Positions 2-20,000 of a stretch of 20,000 nt of DNA are shown here, one piece after another. The notes under the pieces were generated by a model that ran no database searches, was not told where the DNA came from, and saw only the letters and a list, made by a program, of their open reading frames with translations. The translations under genes and the position numbers were made by a program. The DNA lies in IMG/VR virus record IMGVR_UViG_3300008120_010307, one strand, 5' to 3'. Within the stretch, counting starts at the first letter, position 1; each line of letters begins with the position of its first letter. Origin of the DNA: an uncultured virus (IMG/VR IMGVR_UViG_3300008120_010307). Taxonomy: Duplodnaviria; Heunggongvirae; Uroviricota; Caudoviricetes.

Positions 2-2023
2 GACACAGGTAATACGGGGGCTCAGGGTGCTGTGGGGCCACAAGGAGCAACTGGTCCGACAGGACTTTCAGGTGCTCAAGGTGCCCAAGGTGGGGTAGGA
101 CCGACAGGGGCTACAGGACCACAAGGAGCTCAAGGACCTGCGGGTAATACGGGTCATTCTGGTGCACAAGGTGCTACAGGACCAACAGGGCCTGGAGGTA
201 ACACAGGTGCTCAAGGGGCGGTTGGACCGAAAGGGGCTACAGGACCTCAGGGAGCTCAAGGACCCGCAGGTGGTACAGGTAACACAGGGGCTCAGGGTGC
301 CACAGGACCACAAGGTTCACAAGGGGCGGGTGGTGGAACAGGTCATCCAGGTGCCCAAGGTCCCCAAGGAGCGATAGGACCACAAGGTTCACAAGGAGCC
401 ACAGGACACACTGGTGCTCAAGGCCCACAAGGTGCCACAGGACCACAAGGCTCACAAGGGGCTACAGGACATCCTGGTGCCCAAGGTAGTCAGGGTGCGG
501 CCGGACCAAAAGGACCTAATGGATTCACAGGTCATCCTGGAGCGCAAGGACCGCAAGGTTCAGCGGGAGCAACGGGTGCTCAAGGTCAGACAGGTCATCC
601 GGGGGCACAAGGTGCAGGTGGACCTACTGGGTCTCAAGGACAAGGGGGTGGTACAGGACATCCTGGAGCTCAAGGTGCCATAGGACCCAAAGGACCTCAA
701 GGACCTACAGGTGCTACTGGCCATCCTGGTGCTCAAGGTGCTGGTGGAGGTACTGGTAACGAGGGGGCACCAGGTTTCACAGGACATCCAGGTGCACAAG
801 GTGCTACAGGACCAGGAGGTAGTCCGGGTGCTCAGGGTTCACAAGGTTCCCAAGGACCTCAAGGAGCTCAAGGAAATACCGGTCCGACCGGCGTACCGGG
901 AGCTACGGGGCATCCTGGTGCTCAAGGAGCGGTCGGTCCAACTGGCCCACAAGGTCCGTCAGGTAATACAGGACATCCTGGTGCACAGGGAGCAACGGGT
1001 CCTACAGGACCTCAAGGAAATACAGGTGCCACGGGTGCTATTGGACCCCAAGGTGCGGGAGGTGCCACAGGCTCACAAGGGGCTGTAGGACCTCAAGGAG
1101 CAACTGGAGCCACAGGAGCCCAAGGTCCACAAGGTCCAGGTGGTCCTACAGGACCTGGCGGGGCACAAGGTGCTCAAGGAGGAGGAGGTGCCACAGGACC
1201 TCAAGGACCACAAGGTCCAAAGGGACCTCAGGGTGCTACAGGTCCTACAGGGGGTCCTGGTCCAACTGGACCACAAGGTCCTCAGGGACCAACAGGAGCA
1301 CCTGGACCTACAGGTGCCACAGGACCACAAGGTCCTACAGGTGGTCAAGGTACACAAGGCTCATTAGGTGCAACAGGAGGGCAGGGTGCTCAAGGTTCCC
1401 AAGGAGCTGTTGGACCTGGAGGTGTAACATGTCAACTGAATAGTATTATTGCTCTTACAGGAAGTAGAAACCCATGTGTAGGTGTTTGTAATATCACTGT
1501 ACCCAACGTTTATCCATACACTCAAACTGCTTACACAGCCACACAAAACAAATATTTCGATGCTACGAATTGTTCAAATGGTACTTGTGATTGGAATACT
1601 TATAACTGGGAACAATGGAATAGTGCATGTTATTCATTAAACGCCACTTGTGGTAATGGTACCTATCAGCAGGCTTGTGCTTATTCTGACGTGAAACTTA
1701 AAACAGGTATTGAAACCTTGAAAGATTCTCTTATAAAAATATTGGAAATAGAAACTGTTGAGTATGATTGGAACGAAAAAAATTGGGGTACCAAAGAAGA
1801 GTATGAATATTTTGCTCAGATGGGAAGATTACATCAGATAGGTCTAATTGCACAAAACGTAAGAATTCATTTCCCTGAAGCTGTTGGAATCGGTCCTGAT
1901 GGATATTATTACATTGACTACAAGAAATTAAATTCTGTTGTAGTTGAAGGTATAAAAGAACAACAAGTATTTATTGAAGAGATAACTAAACAAGTAGACG
2001 AATTAGAAATTAAATTGAGATAA
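2..2023 (+). CDS. Collagen-like phage fibre protein 1 (5'-truncated by the window) with Cys-rich head and C-terminal S74-type intramolecular chaperone
   Basis: Frame is open from base 2 ([12 protein letters not shown]...), so the GTG at 32 is not the true start. Uninterrupted Gly-X-Y runs to about 1429 and an 8-Cys segment spans 1430-1684. It is followed by [10 protein letters not shown]...EYDWN...IGLIAQNV...FPEAV...IDYKKL...EGIKEQQ, the S74 chaperone pattern. Confidence 0.9.
8..1429 (+). repeat. Coding Gly-X-Y repeat with a 7-triplet (63 nt) super-period marked by GHP
   Basis: His-containing triplets fall at positions 14, 35, 42, 49, 56, 63, 70, 77, 84, 98 and 105, counted from nt 35. Confidence 0.9.
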
Positions 2024-19455: not shown

Positions 19456-19607
19456 GTTCTTACCCGAAAGGGTGAACATCCCCACAGATTCAAGTTTTCA
19501 ACCGAGAGGTTGGTAAAAAAACCTGAATCATACGAGACAGAAAAAGTCTCAAAAAAAGTCCCACAAGTTTGGTGTTTCAAAAAAATGTCTTATCTTTGTG
19601 GGACTTT
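19456..19607 (+). ncRNA. Candidate structured RNA A (two GNRA-capped hairpins plus two further stems)
   Basis: GTTC-TT-ACCC-GAAA-GGGT-GAAC; GATTCA..CAACC-GAGA-GGTTG..TGAATC; GAGAC/GTCTC; AAAGTCCCACAA/TTGTGGGACTTT. Confidence 0.6.
19568..19598 (+). promoter_or_regulatory. Bacteroidota-type sigma-A promoter
   Basis: TTTG at 19568-19571, a 19 nt spacer, and TATCTTTG at 19591-19598, upstream of the tRNA. Confidence 0.7.
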
Positions 19608-19636
19608 ATTATCAAAAGAAGTTCTTTAACATATTT

Positions 19637-19691
19637 CTACTCAAGGTTCAACCAGAGCATGACTTGGATGGTGACACGGGGACTTGAGTAG
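19637..19691 (+). ncRNA. Candidate structured RNA B
   Basis: Perfect 9-bp closing stem CTACTCAAG/CTTGAGTAG around a 37 nt GC-richer interior. Confidence 0.4.
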
Positions 19692-19702
19692 TTTTATTAT
19701 AG

Positions 19703-19778
19703 GGCGAGCGGGAGGTAAGGTATCTCATTGGTCTCATAAGCCAATTGAACTTGGTTCAATTCCAAGGCGTCGCAACAA
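19703..19778 (+). tRNA. tRNA-Met(CAT), initiator-like and atypical
   Basis: D arm GAGG/TCTC, anticodon arm TTGGT-CTCATAA-GCCAA, T arm CTTGG-TTCAATT-CCAAG. The acceptor GGCGAGC/GCGTCGCA has one bulge and the gene ends ACAA. Confidence 0.75.
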
Positions 19779-19964
19779 TACAGGTGAAGACTGTGGTGGA
19801 ACCCCACGGTATATGAATCCTAAAGACGCCGTCTTGATTCGCGGTATCAGAGCGGTGAGGGTATAGTTACTATAAGTCAGGAGTAATTAACCAACGACGA
19901 AAATGTAACCACCAATGTAGGAATATGTTGGTCATGATGTACAAAAGGGTACAAAAAGCCTGTA
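19779..19964 (+). ncRNA. Candidate structured RNA C (186 nt multi-stem junction)
   Basis: Closing stem TACAGGT/GCCTGTA encloses five plausible hairpins. Confidence 0.55.
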
Positions 19965-20000
19965 AATTTTTTATAAAAAACTCTTATAAAATTTGACAGT

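Follow-up and report, generated by a model that had tools for sequence, protein, structure and literature searches.

The window analysed here (20,000 nt from an uncultured member of the Caudoviricetes, IMG/VR record IMGVR_UViG_3300008120_010307) carries close to its 3′ end a structured RNA element with conserved limits at 19780..19963 on the plus strand (184 nt). Comparison with its homologs indicates that the element is a real ncRNA family of large freshwater phages, uncatalogued in Rfam. We think it probable that the element is a free-standing structured phage RNA that self-assembles by two symmetric loop-loop kisses. The main evidence comes from two hairpin loops, L3 and L4, which, as judged from the alignments, are held to self-complementarity while their sequence switches. 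An initial annotation of the window had proposed an undescribed phage ncRNA, and this reading stands: the family covaries, is almost entirely viral, and gave no Rfam match when the window and 30 homolog loci were searched. The two covarying palindromic loops, the main feature of the RNA, were missing from that annotation's feature list.

Identification of the family

Homologs were gathered by motif scans of viral contigs (two scans) and of metagenomes, where 76 of 77 loci from the metagenome scan were true by nhmmer. The scans gave 76 distinct full-length homologs, which together with the window form alignment A2 (77 rows; median pairwise identity 79%, minimum 62%; member length 174-189 nt). 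Further sequences were held out from this alignment. They came from two scans anchored on hairpin P2 and loop L6, with patterns that leave L3 and L4 untouched, and from a genome scan; 140 hits in 159 loci yielded 48 new distinct sequences, and the 46 usable ones bring the family to 77 aligned and 46 held-out members. Rows L067 and L237 (truncated) and L310 (N/deletion) were dropped, and the 117-row set used for invariance and mutual information leaves out six distant rows.

The family is almost confined to viral contigs. GTDB genome contigs gave a single match, in a MAG; the contig is 740 bp long and is probably a phage fragment binned in error. A plasmid search did not find the element, and a BLAST search against cultured phages matched the neighboring tRNA alone. 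One copy is present in each of seven records searched, the phage records being 217-336 kb long. Occupancy of the window's own locus is patchy: the element is carried by 3 of 22 loci found via a motif of the large phage RNA GOLLD, most relatives lack it at the same locus, and some bear it at another (G002, for example). A tRNA-anchored pattern for the closing stem returned 16 loci, among which the only members were the two near-identical ones.

In Rfam 15 the element has no match in the window at the gathering threshold, and none even at E<=10. Rfam models likewise left the element unmatched in 20 near and 10 further homolog loci; the latter gave two unrelated sub-threshold scores, of snoRNA/sRNA level, anywhere nearby. 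We found no description of the family in a literature search whose coverage most subscription papers fall outside. The 8,495 candidate structured RNA models of IMG/VR in Fremin 2023 (PMC10690425) are given there as <=151 nt each, so none spans the whole 184-nt RNA; the element's motif is unmatched in three tables of that study, and the catalogue may still list a fragment.

The window also encodes collagen-like and peptidase S74 proteins, a DNA methylase and a NUDIX protein, and a Gp23 capsid gene is present in all three near-complete carriers (270-324 kb). On the basis of these genes, the carriers are T4-like jumbo phages. Promoter boxes of the form TAnnTTTG, described below, suggest a Bacteroidetes host. 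Loci L001 and L002, which extend beyond the window end, encode a NUDIX protein identical to that of the window. Neither Ro60 nor a PF01743 nucleotidyltransferase was found in the three near-complete carriers. A 60-codon frame with a TTG start (19684-19866) was judged non-coding in view of the frequent single-base indels in A2.

Fold and covariation

On the plus strand, the window sequence of the element folds better than shuffled controls (z -2.77, 0/200 as good); z is +0.36 on the minus strand, and in each of 13 members sampled z was lower for the plus strand than for the minus strand. The strand preference agrees with the initial annotation, and the arms it listed all occur in the sequence where it placed them. 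A revised structure of 46 pairs has 97.2% of its 3537 cells paired in A2, against 33-45% in slid controls. Compensation is seen at 24 of the 46 pairs, and doubly changed cells number 294 versus 75.5 in shuffles (0/500).

The RNA is closed by P1, with its 5′ strand at 19780..19785 (+) and its 3′ strand at 19958-19963 (98.9% paired, 5/6 pairs compensated). As first drawn, at 19779-19785/19958-19964, the closing stem is supported by covariation, but conservation covers only 19780-85/19958-63. Hairpin P2 (19790..19810 (+), 98.9% paired) ends in the 7-nt loop L2 (19797-19803), which reads UGGAA followed by CC; the five-base part is UGGAA in 39 rows, UGUAA in 14, UGUGA in 10 and something else in 14. 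This pattern fits a T-loop, which we take L2 to be. Within the P2 stem, the pair 19792-19808 switches between U.G and G.U in step with position 19811.

Mutual information exposed two contacts to be added to the hairpins. One is a tertiary contact in which G19947 and G19948, in the loop of hairpin P6 (19938..19953 (+)), pair with C19803 and C19802 of L2. The 19802-19948 pair is CG in 66 rows, GC in 8, UG in 1 and other in 2; the second pair is invariant in A2 and C.U in 15 of 117 rows. The other is a central helix of 4 bp, formed by 19812..19815 (+) with 19933-19936, which is 98.7% paired (0/500 shuffles), two of its 3′ bases having been preset by the second viral-contig and the metagenome search patterns. 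Three of its pairs are invariant, and the fourth varies (AU42/GC16/GU8/UG7/other 4); in the nearest-neighbor model the helix costs 2 kcal/mol. With the central helix in place, the RNA consists of two four-way junctions, an outer one of P1, P2, the central helix and P6 and an inner one of the central helix, P3, P4 and P5.

Of the inner arms, P3 (19819..19861 (+)) has helices that are 100%, 90% and 91% paired, with compensation. The long arm had been drawn at 19817-19862; covariation upholds it as P3, with the register moved by one base (19819-21/19859-61). P4 (19866..19909 (+)) comprises 19866-70/19905-09, 19876-78/19896-98 and 19880-81/19891-92, which are 99%, 96.5% and 98.7% paired, and contains a conserved A-rich internal loop that presumably resembles the UAA/GAN motif. 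This arm replaces the stem TAGTTACT/AGTAATTA (19864-19889) of the initial annotation, which is 81% paired with its first pair broken in 74 of 77 rows. The covariation score of that stem lies under the shuffled mean (498/500 shuffles as high), and while its energy equals that of the revised fold, covariation favors the longer arm. P5 (19911..19932 (+), 98.7% paired) is a peripheral hairpin with a GGAA loop at 19920-23, presumably of the GNRA type in most members; its length is 12-24 nt in A2 and greater in the held-out members L248, L252 and L315, where an insertion reaches about 34 nt. The other arms first drawn at the positions of P2, P5 and P6 are all backed by covariation. Taken together, comparison establishes the predicted fold as two four-way junctions with an L2-L6 contact.

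The sequence of L2 bears on the idea that the element is a tRNA-binding or tRNA-processing RNA, T-box-like or RNase P-like, that serves the neighboring tRNAs. It sits in tRNA arrays and has a T-loop, and we presume that UGGAACC resembles the bulge of a T-box antiterminator. A T-box is recognized by an invariant UGGN bulge that pairs with tRNA NCCA. The UGG is kept in only 41 of 77 L2 loops, however, and the last bases of L2 pair with L6; T-box and RNase P matches from Rfam are absent, and the covarying pairs include no counterpart of the RNase P P4 pseudoknot. We regard such a role as very unlikely.

Self-complementary loops

The L3 hexamer UCGCGG (19839..19844 (+), core CGCG at 19840-43) and the L4 hexamer UAAUUA (19884..19889 (+)) are both self-complementary, and are predicted to be symmetric kissing loops 1 and 2. 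All 77 rows of A2 have a Watson-Crick palindrome as the L3 core, namely CGCG (60, a count inflated because the pattern of the first viral-contig scan fixed this loop), CUAG (7), CCGG (6), GCGC (3, two of these calls, L105 and L132, being ambiguous in register) or GGCC (1). The core changed 8 times on a tree from which the loop columns were left out. The L4 center is AU in 62 rows and GC in 15, with no mixed state, and its 8 changes on the tree each involve both bases jointly. As a control, 162 adjacent column pairs were considered, of which 68 vary in both columns; only the two loop centers are Watson-Crick in at least 90% of rows.

The held-out members behave in the same way. Their L3 is a palindrome in all 42 rows where it could be located, out of 46 (background 33%), and includes a new core, CAUG; the remaining four loops, read by eye, are UCGCGA once and UUCGAA three times. 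L4 is a palindrome in 40/41 near members. In the five most distant members, whose L4 was read from predicted folds, P4 is otherwise different, and its tip carries GUGCAC (3) or UGGCCA (2). Imperfect L4 hexamers occur in L167 (UAAUAA), L166 (UAGCGG) and L281 (UUGCUG), and in L331 and L235 the MFE fold puts part of the hexamer inside a stem. Arm lengths up to the palindromes are nearly fixed, and the length of P5 is free.

Adjacent bases cannot pair with each other in one strand, and thus symmetric kissing between copies is the most likely source of this pattern; we consider it very likely, from the covariation, that the L3-L3 and L4-L4 pairing is intermolecular. Kissing between L3 and L4 of one molecule was rejected, since the two loops change independently. 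G.U pairs at the hexamer edges (UCGCGG in 48, UGAUUA in 1) point to pairing at the RNA level.

They also count against another reading, in which the palindromes act in DNA or bind a protein (as methylase, restriction, recombination or hairpin-binding sites) instead of pairing RNA with RNA. Palindromes are typical of DNA-protein sites and the phage does encode a DNA methylase. However, a single sequence-specific protein would not allow the exchange seen among at least seven L3 cores and among four L4 hexamers, and both motifs fall exactly in RNA hairpin loops; we find this reading highly improbable.

Genomic context and expression

Upstream of the element lies an atypical tRNA with a CAU anticodon (19704..19774 (+); Rfam 33.1 bits, no call by ARAGORN), whose acceptor stem is bulged and whose D arm is odd. 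Similarly odd tRNAs are found in L021, L028, L034 and L040, the last with a canonical tRNA-Met after it. The element had been said to begin at the base after the tRNA; strictly, the Rfam tRNA ends at 19774 and ACAAT (19775-79) lies between it and the conserved P1. Farther upstream is a TAnnTTTG -7 box (19591..19598 (+)) of a Bacteroidetes sigmaA-type promoter (consensus and position as described in PMC9723704), likely the start of an operon of a hairpin RNA, the tRNA and the element. Downstream, TTTG at 19992..19995 (+) is likely the upstream box of the next promoter, driving GOLLD past the window end. We take this TTTG to be in the -33 role. In L001, a locus nearly identical to that of the window, GOLLD does follow the element (314.7 bits), starting about 147 nt past it.

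Across the 77 homolog loci, an ARAGORN tRNA ends no more than 12 nt before the element in 40 (21 Met, 14 Thr, 5 others), and 11 copies lie behind a T-loop-bearing 3′ end not called in the ARAGORN scan (tmRNA-like ends or odd tRNAs), so that a tRNA-like 3′ end precedes the element in 51. Where a tRNA precedes, its spacing to P1 is 1-8 nt. A further 15 copies have a TAnnTTTG box directly in front instead of a tRNA, and the other 11 follow other sequence; 29 have a tRNA within 30 nt downstream. The gap between the box and P1 is exactly 4 nt in 12 of the 15 promoter copies. With the box at -12 to -5 (PMC9723704), the first base of P1 is the predicted +1. These arrangements indicate that the element is a gene of its own, moving among stable-RNA operons. 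Release by tRNA processing, as the initial annotation had it, is plausible for most copies as one route; it would not be the element's purpose, and with 15 of 77 copies directly behind their own promoter it is not a defining trait.

The same counts bear on possible catalysis by the RNA, whether as a theta/HDV-like ribozyme that trims the 3′ trailer of the tRNA (a lead also given by the initial annotation) or as a new ribozyme class with its active site in the invariant junction. The tRNA-like end in front of 51 copies would suit such a role, as would the roughly 50 positions that are >=98% invariant in the 117-row set, many of them in the junctions. Theta ribozymes are described next to phage tRNAs, on the 3′ side, with Bacteroidota among the presumed hosts of the phages, and are recognized by a nested double-pseudoknot fold with a minimal size of about 56 nt (PMC10879173). 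The element differs in both respects: at 184 nt against 56 nt, it has no nested double pseudoknot, the covariation pointing to a double four-way junction. Moreover, HDV-family matches from Rfam are absent from the window and homolog loci, the tRNA-P1 gap is inconstant, and the 15 copies at a promoter start, independent of any tRNA, have nothing upstream to cut. We judge catalysis quite unlikely, and the HDV-like lead was not borne out.

Another reading is a selfish or passively hitch-hiking cassette of tRNA arrays that brings the phage no benefit. The patchy presence at the window's locus and the positions behind many different tRNAs and tmRNA-like ends agree with this. Single copies per record, strict purifying selection with repeated compensatory changes, and the fact that no adjoining enzyme gene was noticed in the loci examined make it quite unlikely, slightly more so than catalysis. 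A self-assembling RNA with a gene of its own remains the preferred reading.

In contigs from four freshwater RNA runs (three studies), GOLLD is deeply covered and the element uncovered; the query was long and favored GOLLD holders, only contigs were searched, library preparation may easily lose a short structured RNA, and relatives account for much of the GOLLD signal. GOLLD at L001 4205-5010 is represented by contigs from all four runs, one of which (544 nt) has zero differences.

Comparison with known RNAs

The closest functional parallels are natural RNA-only oligomers, few of which are known (PMC12990946). Like the element, GOLLD (RF02032) is a phage ncRNA beside tRNA-Met, and it joins its half-shells by two self-interacting kissing loops, B8 and B9 (PMC12286853). 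However, GOLLD exceeds 800 nt, its model matches the neighbor (L001 4602-5008) and not the element, and GOLLD is missing from the whole of record G004, which carries the element, and from the flanks of 68 of 77 loci. According to Kretsch et al. (PMC12286853), adjacent-base covariation marks symmetric kisses verified by cryo-EM, in L9.3 of OLE and L21a of GOLLD. The element displays the same sign as the OLE/GOLLD/ROOL/manA class, adjacent loop bases covarying between palindromes. OLE, as far as described there, has a symmetric kissing loop with a core that changes from one palindrome to another, as is predicted for the element; OLE differs in being about 580 nt, chromosomal, and bound to protein and membrane, whereas the element has two switching loops and no OLE match in Rfam.

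In size, the element is nearer to manA (RF01745) and EGFOA (RF02955), described as short self-assembling RNAs of <200 nt. The former occurs in cyanophages and forms 8-, 10- and 60-mers via kissing loops (bioRxiv 10.64898/2026.07.01.735769). The interfaces reported for the two are between unlike loops (L5-L7', L8-L9', L3-L8') or by strand swap, in contrast to the same-loop palindromes here, and neither model scores on the element at E<=10. The element would work like OLE, GOLLD, ROOL and manA, and on the sequence comparisons belongs to none of these families. The literature searched contained no other case of a 184-nt RNA with two same-loop palindromes that switch independently.

The T-loop of P2, with extruded bases pairing with a second loop across a junction, is to our understanding like the kissing module of FMN and cobalamin riboswitches. 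Unlike those riboswitches, the element has no ligand-binding consensus and no Rfam match, and is not the leader of a gene family. The phi29 pRNA is about 170 nt, similar in size, and a pRNA-like ring on the packaging motor would have loop-loop assembly in common with the element. The pRNA, though, uses two different complementary loops that are not self-complementary; the carriers of the element are Gp23-type jumbo phages and its gene lies in tRNA arrays, so that this is, to us, the least likely of the alternatives.

Proposed assembly and its significance

In the proposed scheme, host RNA polymerase would transcribe the element from the Bacteroidetes-type promoter, alone or within tRNA, tmRNA or GOLLD operons from which ordinary tRNA processing would free it. 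P1 would close the RNA and protect its ends, and the folded core would direct arms P3 and P4 outward, letting L3 pair with L3 of a second copy and L4 with L4. A dimer would result should the two kisses share a two-fold axis; kisses with different partners would give an even-numbered ring, cage or filament. The choice between a dimer and a higher even-numbered assembly is evenly balanced. Alone, the UAAUUA self-duplex has -0.4 kcal/mol, and L4, with its weak A-U kiss, would depend on cooperation from L3.

As for the role of the assembly in infection, we speculate, with rather less than even confidence, that it may be a multivalent RNA scaffold or decoy that shows invariant single-stranded surfaces to host translation or RNA-surveillance/defense proteins. 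Slightly more doubtful is a two-ended building block whose loops might engage different partners, to form an even ring, cage or filament in infected cells, with the palindromes as a self/non-self code. If so, the interchangeable palindromes would prevent mixed assemblies between RNAs from different phages in one infected cell.

For the question of what GOLLD/ROOL-type phage RNAs do, the element offers a compact model of self-assembling RNAs from tRNA operons. The RNA is small enough for easy transcription and mutation, and the family is a natural series of orthogonal palindrome variants. Its interfaces are predicted from sequence alone, which allows a direct test of adjacent-base covariation as a predictor of quaternary structure, and it offers natural parts for RNA nanotechnology.

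Other features of the loci

The operon region holds further conserved features. A second conserved hairpin RNA at window 19637-19693 has no Rfam match; its core motif recurs in 19 of the 77 homolog loci, 11 of which have it downstream of the element at a distance of no more than 60 nt, and also in the element-free loci L003, L028 and L034. The -7 box lies inside a long inverted repeat (19548-19606) kept in several relatives, and stem-loops upstream of the promoter (19462-19552), possibly a third small RNA, are recognizably kept in L003, L034 and L039. After the promoter, 19620-19631 is presumably a BoxA-like antitermination motif; a similar motif precedes GOLLD in L001.

Other sequences occupy the space around the tRNA in some relatives. 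In L039 (about 1230-1370, from tRNA-Met to the GOLLD promoter), a different insert of about 100 nt takes the element's position; it has a short stretch in common with P6 and is unmatched by the family model R1. An unannotated element of about 140-150 nt, common to L169, L159, L163, L155, L180, L185 and L107, lies between tRNA-Met and the RNA. In the element-free loci L003 (3687-3890) and L028, the place of the non-coding spacer before tRNA-Met is taken by a short ORF. Finally, L234 contains a group I intron match (871-1087, minus strand) that scores 72 bits and lies upstream of a family member, at a distance of about 120 nt.
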